A stretch of DNA of 57,239 nucleotides from an uncultured Candidatus Saccharibacteria bacterium (GTDB lineage Bacteria > Patescibacteriota > Saccharimonadia > Saccharimonadales > Saccharimonadaceae): contig CAUTSQ010000001.1 of assembly GCA_963541395.1 (NCBI GenBank), forward strand, positions 1-57,239, given 5' to 3'. The notes under the pieces were generated by a model. It was given only the letters and a program-made list of their open reading frames with translations. It was not told the origin of the DNA and did no database searches. Shown here piece after piece: positions 27,324 to 55,410 of the stretch (its first letter is position 1; the number at the start of each line of letters is the position of its first letter). The position numbers were made by a program, and so were the translations under genes.

Positions 27324-27807
27324 GGGAAATTGCGAAAAAGTATTGACAATTTCATCACTCTATGCTATATTAATACTAGCTTTTCGCTCAAGGTTAAGTA
27401 AAAGGGCGGAAAGTCGCCCTTTGCCTTGAGCATGATTTCTAGGAGGAATCATGAGCGCCACATTCGCTATCGTCTCAGCTTCTCTCATCACCGTCGTCGT
27501 TTGTGCGGCGACGTGCGCACTGATGATTCCGTCAGCCCAGACCCACCGGGTCTGGGCGGCCCGGTGGGCTCAGGCCCGAGCGGCCTGGGCTCAGTCCCGG
27601 GCCAACCGGGCTCAGTCCCGGGCTCAGGTCCGAACCGCCCGGGCTCGGGCAGCTCGGAGGGAGGTCTTCAAGGGCTAACAGCCCGCCAGAAAATAGCTCG
27701 CCGAATTGGTTCAACACTGGTTGAGACACTTAATCATTAAGTGTTTCCCGGGTTGATATAAAACCCAATTCCGGTTTGAGCCATTTCGGCGGGCTATTTT
27801 CTTTGGT
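27324..27807 (+). other. Framed expression cassette A (promoter, hairpin leader, ORF, terminator)
   Basis: Flanks shared with 46621-47119 and 54774-55410. Confidence 0.85.
27451..27678 (+). CDS. Cassette A payload: 75-aa protein, hydrophobic N-terminus and Arg/Ala-rich repeats, ends KG
   Basis: AGGAGG SD 4 nt before the ATG; GGGCTCAG repeats; ends AAG GGC TAA. Confidence 0.75.
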   Translation: MSATFAIVSASLITVVVCAATCALMIPSAQTHRVWAARWAQARAAWAQSRANRAQSRAQVRTARARAARREVFKG

Positions 27808-28072
27808 GAGGTTTTTGTTAAGTTATTTATTTTACTTTGAAATTTTATAGATTTTATGGGAAATTGCGAAAAAGCGTTGACATTCCTGTTCCAGTATGAT
27901 ATATATATCAGCTTTTGTTGACGAGTCGAGCAAATCCTTGTCCAAAAGAGTTTTTTGATAAGCGAGGCCCACCGTGCGAGATACTTGCCCGAGACTTAGT
28001 CGCGAGCAGACATCTCGCATGGTGGCACAGATGACCACCCACGTTGCGAGAGAGATCGTTCTAGGAGGAACG

Positions 28073-28345
28073 ATGGCTTATTTTGACGAGGAGGCCGCGC
28101 TTGATTTGCTCGAACGCGGTATCCGACTCGCTCAGGACAACCCTGGGGAGGTTGTCCGCGTTGAGTTCACAAAACTCAACGCGTGCGTTGATCTCTCGGT
28201 AGACTGGGATGACAGGCGGGACCCGACGTTCCTCGCCTCCCTGGCATTGTCCGCCGTTGAGGACCTTAAGCGTCATGCACGAGGTCTCGAGCCGAGGTTT
28301 GGTACTAGCGTCCACCCCCTGTGCAGTCTGGTCCTTCGGGGCTGA
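28073..28345 (+). CDS. Cassette D payload: 90-aa soluble orphan protein, ends RG
   Basis: ctAGGAGGaacgATG; promoter 27858-27916 resembles that of cassette A; GC hairpin 28359-28405. Confidence 0.7.
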   Translation: MAYFDEEAALDLLERGIRLAQDNPGEVVRVEFTKLNACVDLSVDWDDRRDPTFLASLALSAVEDLKRHARGLEPRFGTSVHPLCSLVLRG

Positions 28346-28444
28346 CCTACCGCAGTGAGCGCCGCCCCGGCGCGAGATTTTCCCCAATTTCTCGCGCCGG
28401 GGCGGCCCGCCTCGCTTATCACTTTCCCTTGATTGATTTTATCA

Positions 28445-28474
28445 AAAACACCCGGTTAGCTAGCCGGGTGTTTT
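28445..28474 (-). terminator. Terminator after tyrS-HAD genes
   Basis: aaaacacccgg...ccgggtgtttt. Confidence 0.75.
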
Positions 28475-28499
28475 GTTGGCTTGAATTTTGCTCGAAAAT

Positions 28500-29258
28500 C
28501 TATTCGGTCACGGCGATGATGCCCTCTATCGCGTAAGCCGTATCCTGCCAGCGCTCCACAGCGATGCAGTCGATGCCTAGGTTTTTGACCGGGAAGTCGT
28601 TGCCGCCTTCTTCTATTTTGTCGCCAAAGAACAAGATCTCCTCTTTGCTCACACCAGTGGCTTCCATCAACTTTTTCATGCCGTAGGCTTTATCGACGCC
28701 GATTTTGGTGATGTCGACGCTGGTGGTGCCGCCCAGGCGCACTTCGAATTCCGGCAATTTAGCAGCAACGTCGTCGCGCATTTGCTTGCGGACAACTTTG
28801 TTGGCTTCCGCCCAGGCGTATTTTTTCTCGGGCGAGGCTTGCTGGCCTAGCGCCGAATAAGTCACCTGGCTCAAGCGGTCTTCGATAATTTCGCCGTCGG
28901 GATTTGCTTCCCACAAATCAAATTTGCGCGCCGATTCTTCCAGAACCTGAGTGATTTTCTGCTTTTGTTCGTCGGTGAAATCTTCTTTATAATGCGTTTG
29001 CCACTCGCCGGCATTAATGTCAAAAGTATAATAACGCGTGCCGCACGTCGGCATCATGTGGAAGCGCGCCAGCAATTCCGGTGAAACATTCATCTGGTCG
29101 ATGACCTGCTTTTGAAATTGCTCAAATTTGCCGCCGGAAATGACGCAAACTTGATAATTTTCCAGCAATTTAGCGAGCAAACCCGCCATGCGCGGCGAAA
29201 TCGCCGATTTGCTAACCGCTAGCGTGTCGTCCAAGTCAAAACCGATAATTTTCTTCAT
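28500..29258 (-). CDS. HAD-IIB hydrolase, phosphomannomutase-like
   Basis: DLDDT, ISGG, EDR, GGTTSVDIT, FFGDK..GGND. Confidence 0.88.
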   Translation of the reverse strand: MKKIIGFDLDDTLAVSKSAISPRMAGLLAKLLENYQVCVISGGKFEQFQKQVIDQMNVSPELLARFHMMPTCGTRYYTFDINAGEWQTHYKEDFTDEQKQKITQVLEESARKFDLWEANPDGEIIEDRLSQVTYSALGQQASPEKKYAWAEANKVVRKQMRDDVAAKLPEFEVRLGGTTSVDITKIGVDKAYGMKKLMEATGVSKEEILFFGDKIEEGGNDFPVKNLGIDCIAVERWQDTAYAIEGIIAVTE

Positions 29259-29276
29259 GATTTCCTCCTATTCTGA

Positions 29277-30488
29277 TTATTTTACCAGCAAGAAGTCATT
29301 CTTGCCTCTTTTAATTAAGCTAGTTTCGGTTAGCGGCATATCGCCGGCAATCTTCGCGCCGTTGACGCTGATCGCGTTATTGTGGATCAGCCGGCGCGCT
29401 TCGCCGTTGCTAGTACATAAGCCAGCAGTGGCCAGCGCTGCCACGACCGTCGTCTCGAGATCAACCGTCGGGATTTCGTTAGCCAAAGCGTTCAAATCGT
29501 CGCTGTTAAGCGCCGCAATATCGCCGCCGCCAAACAACGCAGCCGTTACCCGCTCGACGCTTTCGCGGCGCTGGCGGCCGTGCACCAAATCAGTAACTTC
29601 GCGCGCTAAGGTTTTTTGCAAGGCGCGCTCGCCTGGATTGGCTCGATGATTGTCAATCAGCGCTTCGACGGTTTCGCGGTCGAGCAGCGTGTAGATTTTG
29701 ATAAGGTCCTCGCTGGTTTCGTCGTCGCAGTTGAGCCAGAATTGATAGAACTTGTACGGACTAGTCATCTCGGGATCGAGCCAGATGGCACCGCCCTCGG
29801 ATTTGCCGAATTTAACACCAGTTTGCTTATTGATAACCAGCGGCGCGGTCAGCACGTGCGCTTCGCTGCTCTCGAGCTTGCGAATCAGCGACACGCCAAT
29901 GATGCTATTGCCCCACTGGTCAGCGCCAGCTAGCTGCAAAGTGGCGCCTTTTTCGCGGTACAAGTGTAAAAAGTCATACCCTTGAATCAGCCCGTAGCTA
30001 AATTCGCCGTAGCTGATGCCAGCGCCGCCCTCGCCGATACGCTGCTGCACGAATTCGCGGTCGAGCAGCTGCGTCATGCTGATATGCTTGCCGATTTTGT
30101 GCAAGAAATCAATGTAATTAATCTGCGAGAACCAGTCGGCATTATCAACAATTTCAAAATCCTGGCCGCGGAAAACTTGGTGGAATTGCGCCGCCAAACC
30201 TTTGACATTACGCGCCACTGTTTCAGCATTGCGCAGGTCGCGCTCTTGCTTTTTGCCATCTGGATCGCCAATCATGCCGGTGGCGCCGCCGACTAACAGC
30301 AGCGGTTTGTAGCCGTGGTCGATAAAATGCCGGCACAACATCATCGCTGCCAAGTTGCCGATAGTCATGCTCGGCGCACTCGGATCAACGCCAAAATAGA
30401 ACGTTCGCGGCTCGTTTATATCTTTGATATCAGCGAACGTCGTCTGATTGATGAGTCCGCGCCACGTTAGTTCTTCTGCTAGCGTCAT
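29277..30488 (-). CDS. tyrS: Tyrosine-tRNA ligase
   Basis: GVDPSA, GGATGMIGDP, QGYDF, GADQWGN, KFGKS, S4-like C-terminus; start at MTLAEEL after AAAGG. Confidence 0.97.
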   Translation of the reverse strand: MTLAEELTWRGLINQTTFADIKDINEPRTFYFGVDPSAPSMTIGNLAAMMLCRHFIDHGYKPLLLVGGATGMIGDPDGKKQERDLRNAETVARNVKGLAAQFHQVFRGQDFEIVDNADWFSQINYIDFLHKIGKHISMTQLLDREFVQQRIGEGGAGISYGEFSYGLIQGYDFLHLYREKGATLQLAGADQWGNSIIGVSLIRKLESSEAHVLTAPLVINKQTGVKFGKSEGGAIWLDPEMTSPYKFYQFWLNCDDETSEDLIKIYTLLDRETVEALIDNHRANPGERALQKTLAREVTDLVHGRQRRESVERVTAALFGGGDIAALNSDDLNALANEIPTVDLETTVVAALATAGLCTSNGEARRLIHNNAISVNGAKIAGDMPLTETSLIKRGKNDFLLVK

Positions 30489-30597
30489 CTGAAACCTTTC
30501 TTTATTTAATAGTGAGATAGTAACATATTTGCAAATTATCAGCAAAAGCACTAGCCGTCGTGATGCGAACAGTGCTATAATGGTGGAAATATTGCTT

Positions 30598-33312
30598 ATG
30601 GGAAGAGTGAAAGTGGGAAACAAGAAACGAAAAGTAGCTGGCGGCGTCAGCGCTTATGCTAATTTAGCCAATAAACGCCGAGTCAAGAAAGACGCGCGAG
30701 CGCGCAAAAAAGCCGAATATCTGGCAACTTTGCCGAAGCATCCGGTCAAGCGCTTACTATACCGCTTGCATCCGAAACGCCTAGCCAAATACTGGTTTAG
30801 CCGCGACGGCGCAATTATGGCGCTGAAGGTTGTCGGCATAACTTTGCTGCTAATCGTCATCGGGATAGCTTCGCTATTCGCCTATTTCCGCAAAGATCTC
30901 GACAAAATCAACCCTGACACATTGGCGCAGCGCGTTAAAACGACAGTCACCAAATATTACGACCGCAACGACAAATTGCTCTGGGAAGATAAAGGCACTG
31001 GCGACTATACGCTAGTAGTCGACGCCAAAACCATCGCGCCATGCATGGGTAAGGCTACTATAGCTATCGAGGACAAAGATTTTTATAAGCACAGCGGCAT
31101 CAGCGCTAGCGGTATTGTTCGCGCCTTTATCAGCAACTCGCAGGGCAACGCCGTGCAGGGCGGCTCGACGCTAACGCAACAGCTAGTCAAGAAAGTGTTC
31201 TTTACTAAGGACGAAGCTATGCAGCGGGGCTTGTCGGGTATTCCGCGCAAAATCAAAGAGATGATTCTAGCCATCGAGGTCGAACGAATGTACAGTAAAG
31301 ACCAAATCCTCGGCTTGTACCTCAACGAATCGCCGTACGGCGGCCGGCGCAACGGCGTCGAATCGGCCGCGCAAACTTACTTCGGCAAATCATCCAAAGA
31401 TTTAACCTTGCCAGAATGCTCGCTACTAGCCGCTATCCCGAACAACCCGTCGCTTTACAATCCGTACAATACTTACGGCCGCAAAGCGCTTGTCGAACGC
31501 CAGCACAAAGTACTGGACGACATGGTGTCGATGAATTACATATCCAAACAAGAGGCAGCGGCAGCCAAGAAAGTCGACATTATGGATACCATCAAACCGC
31601 TGGCCGACCAATACGCCAACGTCAAGGCGCCGCACTTTGTGCAGATGGTCAAGAAACAGCTAGAGGAAGAGCTCGGCAAGACTATCGTCGGCGAAGGCGG
31701 TTTATCAGTCAAGACAACACTCGACCTCGACGCGCAAACAACCCTAGAAACCAATATAGCCAAATTATTTAACGGCGAGATTACCGATGGTAACTGCGGT
31801 TATCGCAACTGTTCACAATTTGCTGGCTTCTCAAACGGTGCAGCAGCTATTGAAGACACCAAGACTGGCCAGCTTATCGCCCTAGTCGGCAGCCGTGACT
31901 TCAATTATGCTGGCTTCGGGCAGGACAATGCAGCCACCGCTTTCATTCAGCCGGGTTCGTCGATCAAGCCGCTTGTTTACGCCCGCTTATTTAGCAACCA
32001 AGGCGGTAATAACGCCAATTACGGCAGCGGCTCGATTCTAGCCGATTCCAAGACAACTTTCCCGGGCAATTATAGTCCGAACAACGCCGACAACAAATTC
32101 CAAGGCAATATTACCCTGCGCCAAGCATTGGCCCGCTCTCGCAATATTCCAGCTATCAAAGCTATGGCCATCAACGAGAAGAACAACAGCGGCAGCACCT
32201 GGTCGCTGATACGCTCCGCCGGTGATTTGCAGTACTGCACGCAAGGCGCCGACGCGCAAGCTGGTCTATCGAGCGCTATCGGCGGCTGCGGCACGCGCTT
32301 GGTTGACCACGTTAACGCTTTCGCAACACTGGGGCGAATGGGTACTTATAAACCGCAGACGACTATCCTGAAAGTCGCCAACAGCAATGGACAAACCCTC
32401 AAACAATACAAAGAATCTAGCAAGCAAGTCATTGACCAGCAAGCAGCTTACATCGTTAGCGACATCCTTGGCGACAGCAAGGCGCGCGCTGGATTGGCGG
32501 GCCGCGATTACCTAGTCAACCTCGGCCGCGCCGGCGTCAAGGCAGCCGTCAAGACTGGTACCAGCAACAGCGAAATTAATGGCAGAGTCAGCGCCAAAGA
32601 TATCTGGGCTGCCGGCTACACGCCGAACCTATCGATGGCGGTGTGGCTAGGCAATTCTGACACCTCGCCGCTGCGCAATGGCAACTCGCTGATTCCAGCT
32701 ATGTTCTTCGATCGTACGATGGCCGATATCTCCAAGATGTATGCCGACCAAGGTAAACTAAAATTAAGCGACTGGTATACCGCGCCGAGCGGCATCCAGA
32801 CAATCAAGGGAGAGATTTATCCGTCGTATTACAACAAAGCTAGCGCTGCTACCAATGCCAAGATGACTTTCGACCGCGTCTCGAAAAAGAAAGCTACGTC
32901 TTGTACTCCTGAAGCTGCCAAGATTGAAATCGATGTCATGAAAATGGCTGATCCAATCACCAGAAAAGAGATAATCACGCCTAACGACTCTAGCTACGAT
33001 GCTGAGAAAGAGGATGACGCACACAAGTGCGACGATCCGAAGCCGAATGTTACGTTAACGGTGACTAGCGGCGGCGTATCCATCGTCTATACCAGCGGCC
33101 GTTACAAACTACAAAACATCGAATTATTATCTGGCAGTACCGTTGTCGCCAGTAAGCAAGTCGACAGCAGCGGCATCTGGAATATTCATAAAGGCAACCT
33201 GTCAGCAGCCAGTAGCGGCACGCTAACCGCCAAAATTACCGACACTGGCTACTACACGGCGACTAGTAGCGCCAGCTACAATCCAAACAGTAGCAGCGAT
33301 GACGACGATTAA
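30598..33312 (+). CDS. Class A penicillin-binding protein (transglycosylase/transpeptidase)
   Basis: EDKDF, GGSTLTQQL, RKIKE; SSIK, SRN, KTGT. Confidence 0.95.
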   Translation: MGRVKVGNKKRKVAGGVSAYANLANKRRVKKDARARKKAEYLATLPKHPVKRLLYRLHPKRLAKYWFSRDGAIMALKVVGITLLLIVIGIASLFAYFRKDLDKINPDTLAQRVKTTVTKYYDRNDKLLWEDKGTGDYTLVVDAKTIAPCMGKATIAIEDKDFYKHSGISASGIVRAFISNSQGNAVQGGSTLTQQLVKKVFFTKDEAMQRGLSGIPRKIKEMILAIEVERMYSKDQILGLYLNESPYGGRRNGVESAAQTYFGKSSKDLTLPECSLLAAIPNNPSLYNPYNTYGRKALVERQHKVLDDMVSMNYISKQEAAAAKKVDIMDTIKPLADQYANVKAPHFVQMVKKQLEEELGKTIVGEGGLSVKTTLDLDAQTTLETNIAKLFNGEITDGNCGYRNCSQFAGFSNGAAAIEDTKTGQLIALVGSRDFNYAGFGQDNAATAFIQPGSSIKPLVYARLFSNQGGNNANYGSGSILADSKTTFPGNYSPNNADNKFQGNITLRQALARSRNIPAIKAMAINEKNNSGSTWSLIRSAGDLQYCTQGADAQAGLSSAIGGCGTRLVDHVNAFATLGRMGTYKPQTTILKVANSNGQTLKQYKESSKQVIDQQAAYIVSDILGDSKARAGLAGRDYLVNLGRAGVKAAVKTGTSNSEINGRVSAKDIWAAGYTPNLSMAVWLGNSDTSPLRNGNSLIPAMFFDRTMADISKMYADQGKLKLSDWYTAPSGIQTIKGEIYPSYYNKASAATNAKMTFDRVSKKKATSCTPEAAKIEIDVMKMADPITRKEIITPNDSSYDAEKEDDAHKCDDPKPNVTLTVTSGGVSIVYTSGRYKLQNIELLSGSTVVASKQVDSSGIWNIHKGNLSAASSGTLTAKITDTGYYTATSSASYNPNSSSDDDD

Positions 33313-33402
33313 ACCCGCTTCGCATTGCAATAGTTTGCCGCCAATACCCAGCAAAATAGCACGCTCCTAGTAGCGTGCTATCTATATATCGCGCTGGCGA
33401 TT

Positions 33403-46540: not shown

Positions 46541-46620
46541 TTTCGGTTTTTTGAGATAAGTAATTTTGTGGCTTTTACAGAGGTAGTAAAATTATTATGA
46601 CACATTTTTCGTTAAAACGA

Positions 46621-47119
46621 TTAACATTTATACGATAATGTGCTATATTCATAATAGCTTTTCGCTCGAGTTTAGTCTAAAGGGCGAGAAGTGCCCTTTA
46701 ACTCGAGTGATGATTTTCTGAGGAGGAAATCATGAGCTTCATCATTGTCGTCTCCATCACTTTTGCTCTCGTCGCCCCCTGGGCGACGAAGTCTGTTTTC
46801 GACGCCGCCGGCCCGTTGGCCAGCTGGGGGTGGGTCGCGACGTTTGTCGCGGCCCACATCTGGGTCTGGAAGTGCATCTCATACGCCATCTCCAATGGCG
46901 CCAGTGAGATCATTTACATGCCAGCAATCATGCTGGCAGTGTACGAGCTTATCGTTATCGGCTTCGTGCCGATGACCTTCGAGGATGAGGACACATGCAG
47001 GTGCCTTACATGTGAGCAGCACCGCCACAAGGCGGTGAAGAAGGGCTAACCGCCCGCTGAAAATAGCTCGCTGAATTAGCGTTCAGCTTGAGCTCGTTCG
47101 GCGGGCTATTTTCTTTGGT
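46621..47119 (+). other. Framed expression cassette B
   Basis: Same promoter, leader and terminator frame as cassettes A and C. Confidence 0.85.
46732..47049 (+). CDS. Cassette B payload: 105-aa membrane protein with CxCxxC..H tail, ends KG
   Basis: GAGGAGG SD, three hydrophobic segments, ends AAG GGC TAA. Confidence 0.75.
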   Translation: MSFIIVVSITFALVAPWATKSVFDAAGPLASWGWVATFVAAHIWVWKCISYAISNGASEIIYMPAIMLAVYELIVIGFVPMTFEDEDTCRCLTCEQHRHKAVKKG

Positions 47120-48154
47120 TTAATTTACTTCCACTACTGCTTGGACGGCTGGCGGGTCACCGCTCACGCTGGCGGCTAGCAGCTTGGCCGCCATGCCGCT
47201 GCATTCTGGTTTGTCCGCCAAAAACAACTCTGCCGCGAAACGCATCTGCCGCTGCTTTTTGGCGGTAATCGCCGCCAGTCCATCGCCGAAATCATCGTTC
47301 TTACGATACTTCACCTCGGTGAAATACAACACCTTGCCTTTCACGCTGACGATATCGATTTCGCAGTACCGCGTCCGCCAATTCCGCGCCACAATCTCAT
47401 GACCGTCCGCTGTCAGCCAATCTGCTGCCGCTTGCTCGCCTTTATCGCCAATTTGGCGAGTTGTCATTGGTTTACGTGGGCCCCTGATTATTTTCTGAGG
47501 ATATCCGACAGGCGGCTCGCCAGATTGAACGACTGTTTTCTGAGGCACTGCTCGCGGCTTCGCCTTGTTATCAGCATACTTCGCCAGCGGCGCGAAACTC
47601 AGCCGGTGCAGCGGCGTCACGCCCAGGCGCTCAATCGCCGCCCGATGCTTGGCCACGCCATAGCCAGCGTTCGACGCGAAACCGTACCCTGGATAAACCG
47701 CATCTTGCTCGGCCATGAACTGGTCGCGCGCCACCTTGGCGATGATTGATGCCGCCGACACGCTCGGAATCAAACCGTCGGCCTTAGGCATGGTCATAGC
47801 GAACTTCTCTAGCGCCGTGCCGCGCAGAAAATTCACCTTGCCATCGATGATAACTTCGCTAAAAGCTAGATTTTGCTGGCGGCATTGCGCTTGAATTTGC
47901 TCGACCGCTCGCCGCGTCGCCAGTCGCAGCGCTTCGCTCATGCCAGCCTCGTCTAACTCCTGGGCGCTCACCCAGCCCAGCGCCCAGACAGCCGCCTGCT
48001 GGCGGATTAACGCATCTAGAGTCTGGCGGCGCTTTTTGGTTAGCTTTTTGCTATCGTCCAAGCCGTCAATCTCGGCGCCGCCCAGAATCACCGCGCCAAC
48101 CACCAGCGGCCCTGCCCATGGCCCGCGCCCAACCTCGTCGATCCCCAAAATCAT
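47120..48154 (-). CDS. rnhB: Ribonuclease HII fused to a YraN (UPF0102) domain
   Basis: GIDEVGRGPWAGP, DSKKL, SAASIIAKVARD; then GDKGEQAA, RNWR..EIDIV, EVKYR (47120-47467). Confidence 0.92.
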   Translation of the reverse strand: MILGIDEVGRGPWAGPLVVGAVILGGAEIDGLDDSKKLTKKRRQTLDALIRQQAAVWALGWVSAQELDEAGMSEALRLATRRAVEQIQAQCRQQNLAFSEVIIDGKVNFLRGTALEKFAMTMPKADGLIPSVSAASIIAKVARDQFMAEQDAVYPGYGFASNAGYGVAKHRAAIERLGVTPLHRLSFAPLAKYADNKAKPRAVPQKTVVQSGEPPVGYPQKIIRGPRKPMTTRQIGDKGEQAAADWLTADGHEIVARNWRTRYCEIDIVSVKGKVLYFTEVKYRKNDDFGDGLAAITAKKQRQMRFAAELFLADKPECSGMAAKLLAASVSGDPPAVQAVVEVN

Positions 48155-48267
48155 AAGTTCATGATAACAAATGGCAGCGATAGGCTCAATCGCAGACACA
48201 GGTGGCGGAATTTGTGTTATAATATTGGTAAGCTAAGCACATTGACTAGAGAGGAGATGTTTAGCTG

Positions 48268-48507
48268 ATGAAAGGCAAAATTTTTGTCTTATTCATTATG
48301 GTCGGGATCCCGACCATCACCTGGGCCTTTCTGGCCTGGGTAGTAATGTTGGCACTGGGAGCGCTGCACTCGCTGTATAGCGCAATCCCATCGCTCTCCT
48401 TTCTTGAGAGCTTCCTTGCAACGTTGATGCTATTTGCTATAGTCATCTTTGCATTGTCCATGGCAACCGAGAACACGCGACCAGCCCGCCGTCACAACGG
48501 CCGCTGA
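48268..48507 (+). CDS. Orphan 79-aa hydrophobic protein (cassette-like)
   Basis: TGTTATAAT promoter, GAGGAG SD, two long hydrophobic stretches, basic tail, long 3' hairpin. Confidence 0.65.
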   Translation: MKGKIFVLFIMVGIPTITWAFLAWVVMLALGALHSLYSAIPSLSFLESFLATLMLFAIVIFALSMATENTRPARRHNGR

Positions 48508-48589
48508 CCTCTGCCCACGAGGAAGCGGCCCCCGGGCAGAAATCCTGCTTTGCTGTCAGCCTACTTCGGTGGGCGGTTTCCTCTCCGGC

Positions 48590-48657
48590 GCCCGCCGAGG
48601 CGGCTCGCGGAACACGCACGTTCTGCTTGAGCCGCCTCGGCGGGCACTTTCCTTTTC
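48590..48657 (+). terminator. Long GC hairpin/terminator
   Basis: gcccgccgaggcggctc...gagccgcctcggcgggc (17-bp perfect arms) followed by ctttcctttt. Confidence 0.75.
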
Positions 48658-49255: not shown

Positions 49256-49463
49256 AATTTTTCCTATCTTTCGAACCGATTCTGGCTGGCCACGCAGTTG
49301 TACCTCTGCGGCTCCACACCGAACAAAGCCCGAATATTAACTCTCGTACAATGCAAGTATTCTAACACAATATCAAGCGGCAAGCAATAGTTGCAAAGGG
49401 AGAGCAGCCAGCAAAGCCCGCTAATTGCTAGCTGCTCTTGATCTTTATAAAAAAAGAAATAAT

Positions 49464-49970
49464 TTACGCTGTGGTCGATTGATTAATGCTATCGATATCG
49501 ACAAGAACTTGAGTATCGGGATTAGAACCGCCCGCCGTCTGGAAATCTGAGTCAGCTAACGGTTGAACATCTGGATTAATTTGAGTGCTAGTATCAGGAC
49601 ACACGAAACCGCGACCAATAAGTCCTTGCTCCTGCCATATATTGCAAACACCTACTCTAGAAGCTCCGTCTACCACTACTCTGTCCGAAGACTGATCAGT
49701 GCCAGTGTCAGTGTCAATAGAGTCGCCTGGCACCGCTGGCTGAGGCAAATTATCAGTCCTGTCTGTCACAGGAGTAGGATCTTCTTCTTCATTCGCAGCA
49801 AACTCCATAGATGCACGCACGGTAGAACAAGTTGCCACTACAACAATTGCAGAGAGAGCGCCTATCGGTTTCCTTAACTCCTTCTTGGGCAGCCAATCCC
49901 AATCTAAGCCAGTAGACCCCTCAGACGCTGCATGTCTCATAGCTGGCCTGCCAAATTCTAATATACCCAT
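49464..49970 (-). CDS. Orphan acidic exported/membrane-anchored protein
   Basis: Hydrophobic stretch followed by an Asp/Thr/Pro-rich region; TGTGGTATAAT upstream. Confidence 0.6.
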   Translation of the reverse strand: MGILEFGRPAMRHAASEGSTGLDWDWLPKKELRKPIGALSAIVVVATCSTVRASMEFAANEEEDPTPVTDRTDNLPQPAVPGDSIDTDTGTDQSSDRVVVDGASRVGVCNIWQEQGLIGRGFVCPDTSTQINPDVQPLADSDFQTAGGSNPDTQVLVDIDSINQSTTA

Positions 49971-50052
49971 CTCGTTATATTTTTACCTCGAAATTAAAAT
50001 TGGTATGTCTTTTTATTATACCACAAACTATACTAAAATGCAAGCAAAGCAG

Positions 50053-50670
50053 CTATTCATCAGTTGGGTCAAGAGCTTGACGCGGGGTCAACGAGTTTTC
50101 TGTTGAACTCTCTACATATACGACACGGTAGGGCTTGCCGTCAATAATCATAGTCGTCGGAAGCTCCGCTCCTGGCTGAAATCCGTCGACTGCCCCGTCA
50201 AATTTCACACAGATAACTGTATTTTCATCGACGCTATCCGACCGTCTGGCCGCCTTGGATGACGGAGGGTCTACTTCCACCAATTTGCCATCTTCAACGG
50301 CGTAGTATCTTACCTGTTCGTCACCCACCTGCCGCGATTCGCCAGGCTGCTGACATGTCGGGTCGCCGTTGACTTCAGCAGCTGGGCGTACAACAATCTT
50401 GCCGCTGTTTTCACCGTCTGTACTCTGTATGTAAGCAACTGGCGCGATCCAAACTGAATCACCCTCGCCAATTTTTTTGGCTAACTCCTCATAAGTTAGT
50501 GTCCCGGCAGTAGCGCTCTCGGAGGCAGTACTCCCGGCTGGCGTAGGATCCGGCGTCTGATGCTCAGCCGAGCACGACCCGACAAACGAGCTTAACGCTA
50601 AACTTCCAACTGCCAAAAATGTTGTCAACCGGTTTCTTATTGTGTCTAAAAACTCTCCATTTCTTCTCAT
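50053..50670 (-). CDS. Orphan putative lipoprotein
   Basis: Signal peptide ending VGSC, Pro/Thr linker. Confidence 0.65.
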   Translation of the reverse strand: MRRNGEFLDTIRNRLTTFLAVGSLALSSFVGSCSAEHQTPDPTPAGSTASESATAGTLTYEELAKKIGEGDSVWIAPVAYIQSTDGENSGKIVVRPAAEVNGDPTCQQPGESRQVGDEQVRYYAVEDGKLVEVDPPSSKAARRSDSVDENTVICVKFDGAVDGFQPGAELPTTMIIDGKPYRVVYVESSTENSLTPRQALDPTDE

Positions 50671-50745
50671 AAATATATTATGCTACAAACTGCCATTTAG
50701 ATCAACATGCGCGCCCAAAATGCCAAAACGCGCTATAATATACTC

Positions 50746-51879
50746 ATGGATTACAACAAACTAGCACTCGAACTACACCAAAAATATAAAGGCAAAATTA
50801 CCACCGCGCTGCGCGATAACGGCGAAATTGACCGCGATAAGCTTAGCGCTTATTACAGCCCAGGGGTTGGCGCGGTCAGCCAAGCCATCGCCGAGAACCC
50901 GGCGGATTTGCCGAAATACACTTGGACGAATAATTTGGTCGGCGTGATTTCTGACGGCTCGGCGATCTTGGGCCTCGGTGATTTGGGGCCGAAAGCCGCC
51001 ATGCCAGTCATGGAAGGCAAGGCGCTGCTGTTCAAGCATTTCGCTAATGTCGATGCCGTGCCAATCGTCTTGGATGTTCATGAGCCAGAAGAAATCATCG
51101 CTGCGATCAAGGCGATAGCGCCGAGCTTTGGGGCGATCAATTTAGAGGATATCGCTTCGCCAAAATGCTTCGAGATCGAGGAGCGTTTGAAAGCCGAACT
51201 AGACATTCCAGTATTTCACGATGACCAGCACGGTACGGCAATAGTAGTGTTAGCTGGGCTAATCAACGCCGCCAAGGTTGTCGATAAGAACTTGCGCGAC
51301 TGCAAAGTCGTTCTGGCGGGGCCAGGCGCGGCTGGCACAGCGATTATTAAGCTACTCAATCTGTACGGTATCAAAAACTTAATTGCGCTTGATCGCCACG
51401 GCGCGCTGAGCAGCGACCGCACTGACCTGTCGCCAGAAAAAACCGCCTTGCAGCAATATTTGAACACTTCAGAAAGCGGTACTCTAGCAGAGGTACTAAC
51501 TGGCGCCGATATCTTCATCGGCGTATCGGCCGCCAACTCGCTAGCGCCAGAAATGGTCGCCGCAATGGCCAGCCAGCCGATTATTTTTGCCCTGGCCAAT
51601 CCAGTGCCCGAAATCATGCCCAATGCCGCGATTAGCGCTGGCGCAGCTGTCGTAGCGACTGGCCGCAGCGACTTCCCAAATCAAGTTAATAATTCCTTAG
51701 CCTTCCCTGGTATTTTCCGCGGCGCGCTCGACAATGGCGTGCAGAAAATCACCGACCAGCACAAGTTAGCCGCCGCCGAAGCTCTAGCAGCGCTGGTCGA
51801 GAGCCCAACCGCTGACGAAGTTATCCCGTCGCCATTCGACAAACGCGTCGTACCAGCGGTGGCAAATGTCATAAAATAA
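50746..51879 (+). CDS. NAD(P)-dependent malic enzyme
   Basis: YSPGVG, DGSAILGLG, INLEDI, FHDDQHGTA, GPGAAG, ATGRSDFPNQVNN. Confidence 0.95.
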   Translation: MDYNKLALELHQKYKGKITTALRDNGEIDRDKLSAYYSPGVGAVSQAIAENPADLPKYTWTNNLVGVISDGSAILGLGDLGPKAAMPVMEGKALLFKHFANVDAVPIVLDVHEPEEIIAAIKAIAPSFGAINLEDIASPKCFEIEERLKAELDIPVFHDDQHGTAIVVLAGLINAAKVVDKNLRDCKVVLAGPGAAGTAIIKLLNLYGIKNLIALDRHGALSSDRTDLSPEKTALQQYLNTSESGTLAEVLTGADIFIGVSAANSLAPEMVAAMASQPIIFALANPVPEIMPNAAISAGAAVVATGRSDFPNQVNNSLAFPGIFRGALDNGVQKITDQHKLAAAEALAALVESPTADEVIPSPFDKRVVPAVANVIK

Positions 51880-51899
51880 ATCCTAAATCAAGACTAAGT

Positions 51900-51947
51900 A
51901 GTTGAGTTGGGGGCGGGACGGCGAACTAAATCGCGCGCCCCGCCCCA
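51900..51947 (-). repeat. Conserved 3' hairpin, second cassette family, copy 2
   Basis: agttgagttgggggcgggacggcgaactaaatcgcgcgccccgcccc. Confidence 0.8.
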
Positions 51948-52002
51948 GAGCAAAGGCGCGGCTCTGCTGGCTTGAGCTTACCTTTGCGACCGGTCAGCGA
52001 GG

Positions 52003-52416
52003 TTAGGGCGTGGTTGTTGGACTAGTATACCAGTCCAACATCCTTTCAAAGTATCCGCCCCAGCTATACGGCTCTGGGACCAAAATCTCTGGATACCGAC
52101 AGAAGTCTGTCTCGATATTGCCAGCGGCATCACAGTAAAAAAAAGCCAGCGTCGCTCCGCCCTGCCTGTCGTAAACAGCCACGACAAACGACATTTCTCG
52201 ATATACCGATCTGCAGCTGAAAACCTCTGTGTAGAATCCTGCCTCGCGGGCAGAGTTCATGAGGCCAAGAGCAGCGCAGGCCGCGACGCCCCTACCTCCA
52301 GCCGCCAGTTCGTGAAGCTGGCAATCTGGAGAGGTTGACCTATCCAGCCTATAATTGTCGCAGGCTTTAGAAGTAAGAGTAGTAGTCCTACCCATGATAG
52401 CACTTTTCCAGATCAT
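52003..52416 (-). CDS. Orphan Cys-containing protein (cassette-like)
   Basis: TGTGGTATAGT promoter, GGAAGG SD before ATG (MIWKS); shares its 3' hairpin with 40690-41115. Confidence 0.6.
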   Translation of the reverse strand: MIWKSAIMGRTTTLTSKACDNYRLDRSTSPDCQLHELAAGGRGVAACAALGLMNSAREAGFYTEVFSCRSVYREMSFVVAVYDRQGGATLAFFYCDAAGNIETDFCRYPEILVPEPYSWGGYFERMLDWYTSPTTTP

Positions 52417-52516
52417 CTCATACCTTCCTTCCGCCCCGTACCGGGGCCACTCGACGATGGATGTACTCAAACTCTACATCTTAGAGCCAGCACCCAATAC
52501 TATACCACAATTTGCG

Positions 52517-54142
52517 TTAAATCACCCGCGCTATCTCCTCGAGCGTGGTTTCGCCGCGCAAGGCCGCCAGCACGCCGACCTGCTCGAGCGTTAGCATACC
52601 TTCGTTTCGAGCGGTTTCTTCGATCGTCTCGGGGTGAACATCTTGGACATCACCGCGGATAAACTTCTGGATTTCATCAGTGACAACCAGCTGTTCCATG
52701 ATAACCACCCGGCCTTTGTAGCCAAACGGCGCATCTTCGCTAGGCACGGGGCGCCATAGCTTGAAATTATCCAGATCAGGCTTCTCGACATCATGCGGCA
52801 GCTTTTCGAGCACGCGCTGGACGTATTTACGTGTTGCTTCATCGGGTTCGTACGCTTCCTTGGTGTGATCGACTAAACGCCGCACCAAACGTTGAGCAAT
52901 CAACAAGCGGATAGCGCTTGAAAAGATCGGATTAACTCCAATCATATCAATCATACGGCTAAAGGCTGTACTGGTAGTATTGGCGTGAAAGCTCGATAAC
53001 ACCAAGTGGCCGGTGATTGACGCTTGAATAGCCGTGCGCGCCGTATCGACATCACGGATCTCGCCAACCATCACCACATCCGGGTCGAGACGCAAAACAC
53101 TGCGCAAACCATCAGCGAAACTCTGCCCGTGCGTCGTGTCGATCGGGATTTGCGACATGCCGCTCAGGCCATACTCAATCGGATCCTCGAGTGTAATCAG
53201 CTTGCGGTCGGTGGTATTCAACGCGTTGAGCATACTATAAAGCGTCGTCGACTTACCCGAGCCAGTCGGCCCGACCATCAGCACCAGACCGCGCGGGTGG
53301 CTGACAACTTCGTCGATTTCCTTGCGCTGGCGCGGCGGAATACCCAGCAAGTCCAAGTTCAACAATGATTCATCAAAATTAAACAAACGCAGCACTGCAT
53401 CTTGCCCGTACAACGTCGGCACAGTCTCAACGCGTAGGTTCAATAGATGCGTGCCTTGGTCGGTAGTGATTTCCATCTGCATATGGCCGGATTGCGACTC
53501 CATAGCTGCACTACTAACGCCAGCACGGCTAGCTAGCTCGCCCATAATAATCCGGTAGCGCGAACGTTCTAGCTGCGCCACCGGGTGCAGCGCGCCGTCG
53601 ACGCGCATGCGTACGCGGATAGAATCGCGCTCGTTTTCAATGTGAATATCGCTAGCGCCAAGCCTGTCCGCCTGCTTGATCAGGAAATCAAACAATTCCT
53701 CACTTGATACTAGATTCAACGTCTGGCTAACTTGAGCGATGGTGTTGCTATCGCCCTCTTTAGCAATCTCGATATCATCGTAAGCAGTGCGCTGCGGCGG
53801 ATCGTAACGCAGCATCATCGCCCGGTAGCCGCTGGCGCTGATCAGCAAAAACTGCAATTTGTCGCCGCGATCTTGATACTCGCGCTTGATCTTCTGCAAA
53901 ATAGATTGCGGCGTTTGCGAGGTTACGCCGATTTGGTACATCACTTCGTTGCCGCCCTTGGCTAGCGGCACGATGCGGTATTGGTGCATTTTCTCGATCG
54001 GAATCATGCCAGGGACTAGCGGTAGCGTATCCTCTAGATTGCGCATATCAACATACGGCAAACCCAAAATAGTCGCCCGCTGGCGGGTAGCTTTTTCGTC
54101 TTGTTCGCGCCGACGGCGCTGGACTTCTTCTTCATCCATCAC
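52517..54142 (-). CDS. pilB: Type IV pilus assembly ATPase PilB / GspE family
   Basis: ASDIHIE, GPTGSGKSTTLY, LEDPIE, LRLDPDVVMVGEIRD, TGHLVLSSFH, GYKGR. Confidence 0.9.
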   Translation of the reverse strand: MMDEEEVQRRRREQDEKATRQRATILGLPYVDMRNLEDTLPLVPGMIPIEKMHQYRIVPLAKGGNEVMYQIGVTSQTPQSILQKIKREYQDRGDKLQFLLISASGYRAMMLRYDPPQRTAYDDIEIAKEGDSNTIAQVSQTLNLVSSEELFDFLIKQADRLGASDIHIENERDSIRVRMRVDGALHPVAQLERSRYRIIMGELASRAGVSSAAMESQSGHMQMEITTDQGTHLLNLRVETVPTLYGQDAVLRLFNFDESLLNLDLLGIPPRQRKEIDEVVSHPRGLVLMVGPTGSGKSTTLYSMLNALNTTDRKLITLEDPIEYGLSGMSQIPIDTTHGQSFADGLRSVLRLDPDVVMVGEIRDVDTARTAIQASITGHLVLSSFHANTTSTAFSRMIDMIGVNPIFSSAIRLLIAQRLVRRLVDHTKEAYEPDEATRKYVQRVLEKLPHDVEKPDLDNFKLWRPVPSEDAPFGYKGRVVIMEQLVVTDEIQKFIRGDVQDVHPETIEETARNEGMLTLEQVGVLAALRGETTLEEIARVI

Positions 54143-54191
54143 CTTTATTTTAGCAAAAAGCTTGCGCTAAAAACAATGCTACAATAGAATT

Positions 54192-54752
54192 ATGCCAAAA
54201 ATCGTCGTCATCGCCCACAACATCCGCTCGACTTTCAATGTCGGGTCGATTTTTCGTACCAGCGAGGGGTTCGGCGTCGAAAAGCTAATTTTGAGTGGCT
54301 ATACGCCCTACCCAGATTTGAGTTTGTGCCGCGAAGCGCCAAATTGCGCGCTAATCGACGGTGAAATCGCGCGAGACGACCAGCGCCTGCCGCACATTCG
54401 TCAGAAAATCACCCAGCAAATTCACAAAACTGCGCTCGGCGCCGAGAGTTTGGTGCCGTTTGAGTATCACGAAGCACCGCCGCTAGACGAACTGCGGCAG
54501 CTGGGCTACCGTATCGCCGCTCTAGAACAAGCCGCCAATAGTACCAATCTGCGCGATTATTCGGCGCCAGACTGCATCGCGTTGCTGCTAGGCGAGGAAG
54601 TCAACGGTATCGCGCCCGAATGGCTGGCTTTGGCTGACGATATTATTGAGATTCCGATGTTCGGGCAAAAAGAATCGTTCAACGTGTCGGTAGCGGCCGG
54701 AATCGCGCTGTACGAGCTGGTAGCGAGCGGCAAAACCGCCAAAAATGCCTAA
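54192..54752 (+). CDS. TrmH/SpoU family RNA methyltransferase
   Basis: NIRSTFNVGSIFRT, LGEEVNG, IPMFGQKESFNVSVA. Confidence 0.92.
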   Translation: MPKIVVIAHNIRSTFNVGSIFRTSEGFGVEKLILSGYTPYPDLSLCREAPNCALIDGEIARDDQRLPHIRQKITQQIHKTALGAESLVPFEYHEAPPLDELRQLGYRIAALEQAANSTNLRDYSAPDCIALLLGEEVNGIAPEWLALADDIIEIPMFGQKESFNVSVAAGIALYELVASGKTAKNA

Positions 54753-54773
54753 AATTTGCAAATTTTACGAAAT

Positions 54774-55410
54774 AATTGCAAAAAGTATTGACTTCGCAGT
54801 CCATATGTGATATATATATATATTAGCTTTTCGCTCAAGTTTTCCACAAAAAAGGGCGTGAAGTTGCCCTTTTACTTGAGCGTGATTTCCTGAGGAGGAA
54901 TCATGAAGCGCTTTGTTGTTCGTGTCGCCCTTGAATTCGTGGCCATTGCGACCGCGGCCATTGTGGCCGCCCAGCTCGTCAAGTCGGGACACCCCGCCGT
55001 CGGCTTGGGGATCCTTGCCATCTACGGGATGATCGGCTTGTATAGACTGGGCGTTGAGAAGATCAATGCCCAGTACGAGAGGAATATCAAGGAGGCGAGG
55101 ATACGCCGCCTTGAGGCCGATTTGTCTGTCAAGGAGGCGCAGACGCGCCGCCTTGAGGCAGTACTCGTCGACGCCGCGACGAAGGCCTCGTGGGTCTCGG
55201 ATGTCAAAATCCGGGACAACAAGGCCGTCTATAAGATCGACGCGCCCGGCCGCGGGCGCATTGTCATCTATCTCCCCGCTACGGAGGAGGACGCCAAGAC
55301 CAACGACGCCCCCGTGGCGTCCAACAAGGGCTGACGCCCGCTAGAAAATAGCCCGCCTAGAGGCCACCAGCCTCGGCGCAAGGCCTTTCTGGCGGGCTAT
55401 TTTCTTTGGT
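54774..55410 (+). other. Framed expression cassette C
   Basis: Same promoter, leader and terminator frame as cassettes A and B. Confidence 0.85.
54903..55334 (+). CDS. Cassette C payload: 143-aa protein with two TM helices and a coiled coil, ends KG
   Basis: GAGGAGG SD, ends AAG GGC TGA. Confidence 0.78.
   Translation: MKRFVVRVALEFVAIATAAIVAAQLVKSGHPAVGLGILAIYGMIGLYRLGVEKINAQYERNIKEARIRRLEADLSVKEAQTRRLEAVLVDAATKASWVSDVKIRDNKAVYKIDAPGRGRIVIYLPATEEDAKTNDAPVASNKG

Follow-up and report, generated by a model that had tools for sequence, protein, structure and literature searches.

Dispersed cassettes with a shared promoter, structured RNA ends and variable small-protein payloads in Saccharibacteria

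Among the closest described systems, the minimal mobile elements of Neisseria occupy a site between conserved chromosomal genes, in which whole-gene cassettes differ by strain; their exchange relies on transformation and on homologous recombination within the conserved flanks, and no mobility genes are involved. Integron cassettes consist of a variable ORF followed by attC, a structured imperfect inverted repeat of about 60–140 nt whose fold is conserved more than its sequence. Phage morons are single ORFs with their own sigma-70-type promoter and intrinsic terminator, lying between unrelated genes from which they deviate in base composition. Type I toxin–antitoxin loci (hok/sok, fst, aapA/isoA, ibs/sib and others; T1TAdb) combine small hydrophobic ORFs, structured mRNAs and a sequestered ribosome-binding site (RBS), occur in multiple intergenic copies, and have UTR features that are conserved more than the peptide.

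The cassettes described here, found in a 57,239-nt stretch of DNA from an uncultured Candidatus Saccharibacteria bacterium (the window), resemble each of these in part. As in Neisseria, different whole-gene cassettes lie between conserved genes with no mobility genes; unlike there, one promoter, one set of 5′ UTR structures and one terminator recur in all cassettes, at several loci and in more than one genus, so that homology continues inside the unit and between loci, and the payloads are limited to proteins that are small and mostly of the membrane. The arrangement of a variable ORF ahead of an inverted repeat conserved in fold above sequence recalls integron cassettes, but each unit has its own promoter, there is no array next to an integrase, the crossover point is not fixed, and the 3′ structure reads as sense-strand RNA. 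The single-ORF unit with promoter and terminator, and with a base composition unlike its surroundings, is shared with morons; however, these units sit in a cellular chromosome between housekeeping genes, all with one homologous frame, and a search of 10 payloads found no phage families beyond one weak hit. The features listed above for type I loci recur here as well, but promoter scans and a search for leader complements revealed no RNA partner, antisense or trans, many payloads are of 90–194 aa with soluble domains, and unrelated families occupy one frame.

The best reading is that the cassettes are carried by oral Saccharibacteria as a standard transcription unit, family-wide, for small membrane proteins. 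In the explanation favoured here, to which we assign a probability of about 0.6, the conserved ends of this unit would double as homology arms, by which cassettes are replaced through ordinary recombination.

Anatomy and RNA structure of the cassettes

Sequence comparison within the window identified a promoter predicted to be strong, a 5′ stem-loop, an RBS/start-codon hairpin and a 3′ terminator module common to cassettes A, B and C. These features, and two related units, are as follows.

27324–27377, + strand: cassette A promoter, with A-rich upstream motif GGGAAATTGCGAAAAAG, −35 TTGACA at 27343 and extended −10 TGCTATATT ending at 27371
27378–27450, + strand: cassette A 5′ UTR, with an unpaired AGCUUUUC tail, two-tier 5′ stem-loop (27386–27431) and Shine–Dalgarno (SD)/start hairpin (27432–27452)
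27451–27678, + strand: payload A, 75 aa, N-terminal hydrophobic helix and Arg/Ala-rich tail; GC3 0.74
27672–27807, + strand: cassette A 3′ frame, long form, with a small hairpin (27672–27684) holding the stop codon in its loop
27858–28420, + strand: cassette D, a related tandem unit downstream of A, sharing with A the upstream motif, the type of promoter and the design of the SD hairpin
46596–46655, + strand: cassette B promoter, TTAACA-17-TGCTATATT
46656–46731, + strand: cassette B 5′ UTR, with 5′ stem-loop (46663–46709) and SD/start hairpin (46710–46733)
46732–47049, + strand: payload B (family B1), 105 aa, a small membrane protein of several passes whose charged tail is rich in Cys and His; GC3 0.79
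47043–47119, + strand: cassette B 3′ frame, short form, with small hairpin (47043–47055) and terminator stem (47059–47113)
about 48230–48650: cassette F, a fifth and more distant unit, adjoining rnhB
54765–54824, + strand: cassette C promoter, TTGACT and TGATATATATAT
54825–54902, + strand: cassette C 5′ UTR, with 5′ stem-loop (54833–54881) and SD/start hairpin (54882–54904)
54903–55334, + strand: payload C, 143 aa, with two hydrophobic helices in a hairpin, one long helix and a beta unit of three strands; GC3 0.80
55328–55410, + strand: cassette C 3′ frame, second short form, with small hairpin (55328–55339) and terminator stem with a different loop (55340–55410)

Every motif of the frame proposed in a preliminary description of this DNA was recovered in A, B and C, at the positions given there. 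The 20-mer closing each cassette, which had been reported as identical, occurs three times in the window (27788, 47100 and 55391) and in none of 100 shuffles; AGCTTTTCGCTCRAG has three exact copies plus one unrelated site with two mismatches, against a shuffle mean of 0.52. Measured over the longer sequence, the 5′ frames are 75–80% identical, whereas the ORFs of 75, 105 and 143 aa, described as dissimilar, cannot be aligned with one another as diverged paralogues (best BLASTP E 0.47). Each cassette does lie between housekeeping genes: RecG and HAD-PMM (A), M1 peptidase and RNase HII (B), SpoU methylase and DnaE (C). The reported lack of an integrase in the window also holds, as PF00589 is absent from the window's contig and its three hits are all on other contigs of the genome.

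In a consensus scan the promoter of A (TTGACA-17-TATATT, TG upstream) matched at 11 of 12 positions and that of B (TTAACA-17-TATATT with TG) at 10 of 12; the promoter of C, with elements TTGACT and TGATATAT, was not called. Relatives at locus C have a −10 region either of cassette C's own type or of the A type, and the A-rich upstream motif of A also precedes D, C, C25 and E. In the hairpin at 27432–27452, the start codon's AU is paired, as is part of the SD sequence. At the other end, AAG GGC TAA is part of the 3′ frame, where it forms a small hairpin (GGGC-N4-5-GCCC) whose loop contains the stop codon; in other copies the ORF ends ahead of this hairpin. In A, a branched insert lies within the long stem (GAAAAUAGCUCGCC.../...GGCGGGCUAUUUUC), after which comes a U-rich tail. 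The loop in cassette B retains the 3′ part of this long form, and so reads as a deletion derivative. Its 3′ frame adjoins the stop codon of the convergent rnhB at 47120, and the convergent dnaE beside cassette C ends at 55431.

The 5′ UTRs fold with z-scores of −4.3 (A), −4.3 (B) and −3.7 (C). Across 48 distinct sequences of the 5′ stem-loop, 94.8% of cells are paired and nine of 15 pairs are compensatory, a result as high being reached in none of 500 shuffles. Of 42 distinct leaders, 34 have the SD/start hairpin (mean −9.6 kcal/mol), and its paired bases change in concert between variants. The long 3′ form of cassette A folds at −74.4 kcal/mol (z −9.9) and the 3′ frame of C has a z-score of −6.3; in 39 sequences of the long form, 96% of cells are paired and 19 of 38 pairs are compensatory, whereas 300 shuffles yielded at most 15. 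The 3′ element scores 128.6 bits on the sense strand and 42.9 bits on the antisense strand, which, together with the many conserved G-U pairs, argues for a sense-strand RNA. The frame matched no Rfam family, a known element having been one possibility raised at the outset. At locus C the 5′ UTR is no more conserved in sequence (Jukes–Cantor distance 0.28) than the synonymous sites of trmH (0.27); its conservation is structural, or has been blurred by module mixing.

In the favoured explanation, each locus would be a self-contained unit following one plan, used for small proteins that are mostly anchored in the membrane. The unit opens with a near-consensus promoter whose extended −10 is accompanied by an A-rich upstream element; next come the conserved 5′ stem-loop, in two tiers, and a hairpin pairing the start codon and part of the SD sequence, then the ORF, its stop codon usually inside the loop of a small hairpin, and last a two-way, long-stemmed terminator, optionally with a branched insert. 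Both ends would act at the RNA level, on the sense strand. From sequence and predicted folds we infer that they provide strong transcription, a damped or regulated start of translation and protection of the mRNA ends, and that the terminator may serve both the cassette and its convergent neighbour. Counting against this explanation are the RBS hairpin, which would suit a gene under tight repression more than an abundant structural protein, the sequence divergence of the 5′ UTR at locus C, the unusual codon usage of the payloads, and the soluble payloads among them.

Further copies, taxonomic range and payload proteins

The pattern of a fixed frame with a variable payload, first seen in the window, extends to the rest of the genome and to relatives, in which copies and between-species payload variation are plentiful. 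The genome itself has eight leaders, seven of them with the 3′ module. Cassette D has a longer 5′ UTR, different from that of A, and a terminator of its own; its ORF (28073–28345, 90 aa) is acidic, lacks a hydrophobic segment and lies between the arms of an 11-nt inverted repeat. The D unit is present at locus A in 18 of 20 species, with three payload types. Among 60 other species of the genus the leader was found in 40, and among 40 genomes of other families in none; the 3′ module was found in 88 of 105 genomes of the genus and 24 of 148 from the family's other genera. Complete frames occur at four loci in two other genera, and one genome of another genus (G187) has a tandem array of three units with the 3′ module.

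The payloads are not arbitrary captured genes: each is a member of a conserved, lineage-restricted family, and all but one of 52 (51) contain a hydrophobic segment, starting within the first 15 residues in 49. None of the 52 belongs to a known family. Payload A, whose family is also at locus A in four other species (L112, L116, L123 and L127), matched no Pfam or PADLOC family. Payload B falls in 15 database clusters, every one unnamed or ‘hypothetical’, and has a diverged paralogue on contig C7 (12534–12794). Payload C, modelled by AlphaFold2 with a mean pLDDT of 77, falls in 74 clusters, none named or with a Pfam domain, and its Foldseek search of the PDB gave no match at E ≤ 0.001. A second clade of the genus has hydrophobic peptides of 23–30 aa as payloads, many others are of 90–194 aa with extra-membrane domains, and soluble payloads exist (a 57-aa protein on contig C7, D, and that of L110). 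A C-terminal K/E-G is present in 33 of 52, unrelated families ending in frame on the same two frame-encoded codons.

That these are type I toxin–antitoxin-like loci, encoding small hydrophobic membrane toxins from stable, highly structured mRNAs, is unlikely. The SD/start hairpin would hold off translation until processing, or loss of the RNA antitoxin, released it, and as selfish or defensive modules the loci would be multicopy, intergenic and fast in turnover. Consistent with this are the near-universal hydrophobic segment, the 23–30-aa peptides of the second clade, the sequestered SD and start codon in 34 of 42 leaders, a whole A transcript folding far below shuffles (z −11.6), and multiple dispersed, intergenic copies with rapid payload turnover; the inverted repeat around the ORF of D is loosely like the 5′–3′ pairing of hok mRNA. 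However, no antitoxin was found: promoter scans gave no antisense promoter that was consistent, whether within the cassettes or downstream, the downstream sequence is unlike between loci and includes a convergent housekeeping gene at B and C, no complement longer than 12 nt to the A, B or C leaders occurs elsewhere in the genome, and the 34 twelve-mer complements are by estimate at about chance level. The conserved G-U pairs speak against the 3′ element having a functional antisense copy, the type I toxins known to us are shorter than the many payloads of 90–194 aa, and some payloads are soluble.

Payload GC3 is 0.73–0.81, against a genome mean of 0.52 and a maximum of 0.70 among 329 long ORFs, and payload CAI ranges from the 16th to the 87th percentile. 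Other GC3-rich small genes, with different frames, lie at 16934–17371 in the window and on contigs C15 (11277–11699) and C35 (1120–1839). The payloads use AAG, GAG, CAG, CCC and TCC at 0.88, 0.86, 0.89, 0.45 and 0.27, compared to 0.52, 0.54, 0.50, 0.03 and 0.01 in the EF-Tu and ribosomal protein genes; this pattern, unlike that of highly expressed genes, may indicate a foreign origin. It would then be supposed that the payloads, like phage morons, were imported from phages, plasmids or high-GC actinobacterial hosts, landed in intergenic sites, and were fitted with, or selected for, a local promoter and terminator. We regard this as improbable, although the promoter–ORF–terminator modules between unrelated genes of different base composition, the C-/G-ending codons throughout, typical of a GC-rich genome and not of this genome's own highly expressed genes, and the GC3-rich genes with different frames would agree with it. 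No contig with a homologue of B (15 clusters) or C (74 clusters) exceeds 836 kb, Candidatus Saccharibacteria MAGs account for all six named loci of C, and the 10 payloads searched gave one weak hit in PHROGs and none in PADLOC. GC3 stays high across alleles at dS ~1, which points to a continuing force rather than recent import, and the shared frame-encoded ending of unrelated families (33 of 52) is likewise against it.

Payload replacement at orthologous loci

Comparison of orthologous loci between relatives, which the preliminary description had proposed, revealed different payload families and empty sites. At all three loci, different families are present in species whose flanking proteins are 93–100% identical. 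The 20 cassette-bearing species at locus B comprise six with B1, seven with B2, six with T and one T/C chimera, and B2 and T are each found with the short and the long 3′ form, assorting independently. Locus C has 24 cassettes, of which 16 carry the C superfamily, five the K family and three others, while at locus A 14 species have A plus D, four have D only and two are empty. One payload family may also occur at several loci, as T does at loci B and C; likewise, locus B has the C-terminal domain of the C type. Mapped on the flank tree of 20 species, payload type requires 11 changes against a shuffle mean of 10.4, and thus has no phylogenetic signal, a result not convertible to a rate because the flank tree is itself prone to recombination.

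Breakpoints vary, falling after the 5′ stem-loop (G057 versus G000), at the transcription start (G010 versus G000) or upstream of the −10 (G029), and gain or loss of cassette A is flanked exactly, on either side, by direct copies of the promoter motif, both as expected from ordinary homologous recombination. The idea of a gene capture or swap system, put forward with the original observation, is therefore only partly supported: the observation is confirmed and payloads are indeed swapped, but the varying breakpoints give no sign of dedicated capture machinery.

A dedicated integron-like or MITE-like system, in which a site-specific recombinase sees the terminal hairpins as folded DNA and ORFs are inserted or exchanged there, is very improbable, for although the 3′ module, an imperfect inverted repeat, spans 60–130 nt with a conserved structure, a variable centre and a size recalling attC, the genome has three tyrosine recombinase genes, G187 has its tandem array of three units, and the ORF is in phase with the 3′ frame in 33 of 52, the breakpoints are not fixed, the cassettes have their own promoters and are dispersed singly with no array beside an integrase, the PF00589 scan found no recombinase gene on the window's contig, strand asymmetry and G-U pairs point to RNA and not DNA folding, no target-site duplications or solo frames were seen (empty sites being too diverged, or replaced wholesale, for junctions), and no reverse transcriptase was found in the 89% complete genome.

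With a standard transcription unit replaced by ordinary recombination, the frame ends, as the only sequence common to otherwise unrelated alleles and loci, would also be homology arms. Homologous recombination within them, between species of the clade and between loci of one genome, would replace whole payloads, reshuffle modules, and add or delete cassettes. Alleles of C differ by dS 0.95 and dN 0.47, against 0.27 and 0.033 for the adjacent trmH, and the two are uncorrelated (rho −0.01); the payload alleles are far older than their flanks. As old lineages kept circulating, they point to diversifying or balancing selection on cell-envelope proteins.

A common frame at three loci

Three loci in the window hold small ORFs, termed payloads, enclosed in one frame of promoter, 5' leader and 3' module. 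The preliminary description had proposed this frame from reading the DNA, and it is borne out by a closing 20-mer with three copies in the window, absent from all 100 shuffles, and by a leader 15-mer with exactly three occurrences. The payloads of 75, 105 and 143 aa are mutually dissimilar, as had been claimed (BLASTP best E 0.47), with 5' frames 75-80% identical, and the flanking genes do encode housekeeping proteins: RecG, a HAD/PMM hydrolase, an M1 peptidase, an RNase HII-UPF0102 fusion, a SpoU methylase and DnaE. The shared promoter stands for A and B, which match the sigma-70 consensus at 11/12 and 10/12 positions with an upstream TG; in C the consensus scan made no call, and TTGACT and TGATATAT are present by reading. 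The cassettes are as follows.

27324-27807: cassette A (75 aa), between recG and the HAD/PMM gene
27858-28420: cassette D, in tandem with A
46596-47119: cassette B (105 aa), between the M1 peptidase gene and rnhB
~48230-48650: unit F, adjoining rnhB
54765-55410: cassette C (143 aa), between the SpoU methylase gene (trmH) and dnaE

Parts of the predicted cassette RNA
5' tail: 8 nt from the predicted transcription start, unpaired, then a two-tier stem-loop
Shine-Dalgarno (SD)/start hairpin: 9-10 bp; the 3' half of AGGAGG and the start-codon AU are paired to a pyrimidine stretch; 5' UTR fold z -3.7 to -4.3
Small 3' hairpin: after the ORF; GGGC-N4-5-GCCC; stop codon in the loop in A, B and C
Terminal stem: 17-20 bp; GAAAAUAGCYCGCC / GGCGGGCUAUUUUC; U-rich tail; last in the RNA

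The apex of the two-tier stem-loop resembles a small terminator hairpin (AAAGGGC-loop-GCCCUUU). As the stop codons of A, B and C lie within the loop of the small 3' hairpin, the AAG GGC at which similarity had been seen to resume is encoded by the frame; in other copies the ORF stops before this hairpin, leaving it untranslated. The A and U runs flanking the terminal stem suggest a two-way terminator, and the end of a convergent gene lies 1 nt (B) and 21 nt (C) beyond the stem. The loop of the stem has three forms: a long one in A, with a branched insert of ~100 nt (z -9.9), a short one in B that is an apparent deletion derivative of it, and a second short one in C with a different loop. Pairing of the tail AGCUUUUC with the 5' arm of the terminator, for anti-termination or circularisation, was rejected, as inspection found no joint change in the second clade of the genus.

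Cassette D shares the upstream motif, promoter type and SD hairpin design of A, with a longer leader and its own terminator. Its ORF is bracketed by an exact 11-nt inverted repeat (GATAAGCGAGG / CCTCGCTTATC, 27961-27971 and 28410-28420), through which the 5' UTR and 3' end of the D transcript could pair. On the minus strand the conserved upstream motif (27308-27336 and 27842-27870) supplies the -35 TTCGCA of weak divergent promoters (9/12), one directed toward recG and the other giving a predicted RNA antisense to the A 3' element; these are found only in the A/D arrangement. Unit F has a promoter-like sequence of its own and a 79-aa ORF (48268-48507), judged hydrophobic by eye. Its terminator (~48583-48640) scores 24.6 bits with R2, a model of the cassette 3' module to which it is related, and resembles the terminator of a mini-gene at locus B in the genome G053.

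Across the genome (822 kb, 63 contigs, 48.2% GC, 89% complete) there are eight strong leader matches, each before an ORF; seven are followed by the 3' module, and the eighth (contig C7, 12457) by a different terminator. The GC content agrees with that of the G1 group in PMC7427843. Of 60 other species of the genus, 40 have matches to the leader model, with 1-10 copies each; 40 genomes from 40 other families gave no match. The 3' model has matches in 88 of 105 genus genomes and in 24 of 148 from the family's other genera; since it scores on both strands, its match counts are inflated. In two other genera, four loci follow the full plan, from promoter, 5' stem-loop and SD hairpin through a small ORF to the 3' element. 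At a locus of another genus (L109; genome G187, contig C3, 1200-3600), a three-unit tandem array has a 3' element ending each unit; the 5' stem-loop is missing from these units and their promoter is different, one of them is an operon of two genes, and the payloads include several soluble, acidic proteins. The literature consulted, which includes text passages of PMC11623550, PMC10768705 and PMC7427843, does not describe the cassettes, whose genes may appear as hypothetical proteins in the supplements of these three papers.

Both ends of the frame covary as RNA. Among 48 distinct 5' leaders, 94.8% of cells are paired and 9 of 15 pairs show two-sided changes, which none of 500 shuffles equalled, and registers slid along the alignment are only 29-61% paired. 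For the long 3' form, 39 elements (9 of 48 rows having been removed, two short forms and seven reverse-strand matches) have 96% of cells paired. Compensatory changes are seen at 19 of the 38 pairs, and 300 shuffles reached no more than 15; the fitting of the alignment to the model favours structure. Several pairs are kept as G-U, and the element scores 128.6 bits in the sense orientation versus 42.9 in reverse; both argue for a sense-strand RNA over a DNA cruciform or an antisense RNA. RNAalifold gave no consensus pairs for the SD region alone because the register shifts, so sequences were folded individually: at least three SD bases are paired in 34 of 42 distinct leaders (mean -9.6 kcal/mol), and variants of the hairpin change paired bases in concert.

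The frame matches no Rfam family: at gathering thresholds only two tRNAs pass in the whole window, and a permissive scan of 27300-28450 reached 22.7 bits at best against a threshold of 197 bits. The two covarying modules are candidate regulatory elements, a role that we infer from sequence and covariation; to our knowledge, almost no RNA regulation is known in this phylum.

Exchange of payloads at orthologous loci

The frame had been taken to belong to a gene capture or swap system, and comparison of orthologous loci upholds the swapping. The loci came from a close clade of the genus, in which identity is 97-100% over the C-terminal 120 aa of the peptidase and 93-97% over the C-terminal 110 aa of RNase HII; one genome was sampled per species, and kin are not independent. 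Both flanks were recovered at 29 of 30 loci for B, where 20 cassettes comprise six of family B1, seven of B2 (only distantly like B1), six of an unrelated family, T, with one helix and a coiled coil, and one chimera joining a T-type N-terminus to a C-family C-terminal domain. Both B2 and T are found with the short as well as the long 3' form. In nine species at greater distance this cassette is missing and the intergenic stretch measures 29-281 nt; in three further genomes the two stop codons abut.

At locus C (25 of 26 loci with both flanks), 16 of 24 cassettes carry the C superfamily, in several very different allele groups, five an unrelated basic family of 59-63 aa, and three others; the remaining site is empty. 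The 3' module is represented in all three forms, and the -10 region in two different versions. Locus A (20 of 25) has A and D together in 14 cases, D alone in four, a 48-nt empty site in two and A alone in none. The A position holds an Arg-rich family in five species and other families of helix plus Ala/Glu/Arg in nine, and D has three payload types. The lack of A without D would fit a toxin-immunity pair, in a count too small to carry meaning, and B and C have no D-like neighbour. In G010, the closest relative found (RNase HII 96% identical to that of the window), the payload differs at all three loci.

Conserved flanks (93-100% protein identity), differing whole cassettes and no mobility gene are seen together in 20 (B), 24 (C) and 18 (A) cassette-bearing species, a combination shared with minimal mobile elements. 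When payload families are placed on a maximum-likelihood tree, possibly itself recombinant, built from the flanks of locus B (1542 columns, 20 species), at least 11 changes are needed, against 10.4 +/- 1.1 for shuffled labels, leaving no phylogenetic signal in the payload. Alleles of the C family (16 alleles, 118 of 120 pairs usable) have a median dS of 0.95 and dN of 0.47, compared with 0.27 and 0.033 for the adjacent trmH, and payload and flank divergence are uncorrelated (rho -0.01); the alleles are therefore far older than their carrier genomes and have been passed around. Simple in-place divergence of paralogues is excluded by the locus comparisons and by the tempo of payload and flank. 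The overall dN/dS of the C family, 0.48, indicates relaxed or partly diversifying selection on proteins still functional, to which in-frame indels and invariant residues also point.

The points at which similarity breaks vary by species pair: some lie upstream of the -10 or at the transcription start, others past the 5' stem-loop or in the first codons of the hydrophobic helix. Where A is present or absent, the limits of the difference coincide exactly with two direct copies of the promoter-upstream motif. Both features favour homologous recombination with the frames as arms over a site-specific enzyme, and nothing points to the dedicated machinery that a capture system would imply. Natural transformation is known in Saccharibacteria.

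We consider it probable (about 60%) that the cassettes are a family-wide standard transcription unit for small envelope proteins. The conserved RNA ends would set expression, and the same ends would provide the homology that makes the units interchangeable through recombination.

Payload proteins and alternative readings

The payloads of 53 cassettes fall into at least 13 sequence clusters, C and T being joined through the chimera only. Lengths run from 23 to 194 aa; 51 of 52 payloads of at least 20 aa have a hydrophobic segment, beginning within the first 15 residues in 49, and 33 of the 52 end in the frame-encoded K/E-G. The relatives found in databases, 74 clusters for C and 15 for B, have no Pfam domain or informative name, and none of their contigs exceeds 836 kb. 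C was modelled with AlphaFold2 (mean pLDDT 77) as a helical hairpin together with a long helix and a three-stranded sheet, for which Foldseek returned no PDB match at E <= 0.001. Searches of the payloads against Pfam, PADLOC and PHROGs gave sub-threshold noise only, and the best ESM Atlas feature scores (0.80-0.81) lie within the range reached by shuffled proteins. For B, a single structural resemblance to a small phage holin family stayed below threshold and is no more than a lead. That the families are out-of-frame versions of one another was rejected, all cross-family nucleotide matches being short and in frame.

The main rival, which we regard as unlikely, is that the cassettes form a type I toxin-like system, a reading that would fit the hydrophobic peptides, the sequestered translation start and the structured mRNA. 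Type I toxins are small hydrophobic membrane peptides, usually under 60 aa, and many payloads would be too large. Their mRNAs are paired by an RNA antitoxin encoded in cis or nearby in trans; here, sequence scans of the cassettes found no consistent antisense promoter, and nothing over 12 nt complementary to the leaders occurs elsewhere in the genome.

Payload GC3 is 0.73-0.81, compared with a genome mean of 0.52 and maximum of 0.70 among 329 long ORFs. Highly expressed genes are also enriched (EF-Tu 0.68, S17 0.71), but the payloads have an ordinary CAI against these and favour codons that are avoided in the reference set, namely the G-ending ones for Lys, Glu and Gln together with CCC, TCC and GGG; translational selection was rejected as the source on these grounds. 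High GC3 is retained across alleles at dS ~1, which favours a continuing force over recent import, and the reading of the cassettes as imported foreign genes, fitting less well, is improbable. Such a force might be GC-biased gene conversion at a hot spot of recombination, or else selection for mRNA stability, and the excess could offer a test case for bacterial GC-biased gene conversion.

A long shot is that the frame is a natural plug-and-play expression platform, its RNA modules retained for giving any ORF inserted between them a defined fate and making ORFs interchangeable across loci, species and genera, in an integron-like cassette economy run by homologous recombination in a naturally transformable epibiont; the boldest and most speculative version would have the GC-rich codon usage, which departs from that of the highly expressed genes, reflect products or transcripts tuned to act in or on the high-GC actinobacterial host.

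Least credible is a dedicated integron- or MITE-like mobiliser, which fits less well: integron cassettes are promoterless, arrayed beside an integrase and attI and crossed over at a fixed site in the repeat, whereas these have their own promoter, stand singly or in pairs and break at varying points, and MITE or IS repeats have TIRs, target-site duplications and cargo-less copies, whereas all eight leaders precede an ORF. No flanking duplication was seen at the cassettes, where junction resolution is poor because the empty sites have diverged. The window does lack an integrase, as had been noted, the three tyrosine recombinase genes of the genome (PF00589) all being on other contigs, and no reverse transcriptase was found in this 89%-complete genome.

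Saccharibacteria live as obligate epibionts, and their very small genomes have few genes recognisable as serving host interaction. At three loci of otherwise high synteny, nothing varies more than the cassettes; with several per genome and products predicted to be envelope-located, these would be prime candidates for determining host range, competition, or exposure to phages or immunity. A native promoter-leader-terminator chassis accepting unrelated ORFs would be useful for genetics in these organisms, and the loci could serve as strain-typing markers.

Several side observations concern other genes. In the cassette locus L001 (genome G000, contig C4, 18858-19060), a 12-codon leader ORF overlaps the start of a 55-aa membrane ORF by ATGA, which suggests translational coupling; relatives (L016, L021) have a single 66-aa ORF instead. 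On contig C5 of G000, two identical copies (2891-3058 and 5047-5214) of at least 500 bp, 2.2 kb apart, share a 168-bp ORF with 200 bp upstream and 160 bp downstream, and are a recent duplication or an assembly repeat. At 16934-17371 (+) of the window lies an ORF of 145 aa (GC3 0.74) in which several hydrophobic stretches can be seen by eye; it sits in a different frame, with a promoter-like sequence and a GC-rich terminator of its own. Similar GC3-rich small genes on contigs C15 (11277-11699, 0.89) and C35 (1120-1839, 0.81) suggest, with it, a wider class of compositionally odd small genes. The 359-aa ORF at 47120-48199 (-) fuses RNase HII to a UPF0102/NERD-like nuclease domain; in many close relatives the two parts are separate matches within one open frame of 390-420 aa, with a gap or poorly aligned linker of ~20-40 codons between them.
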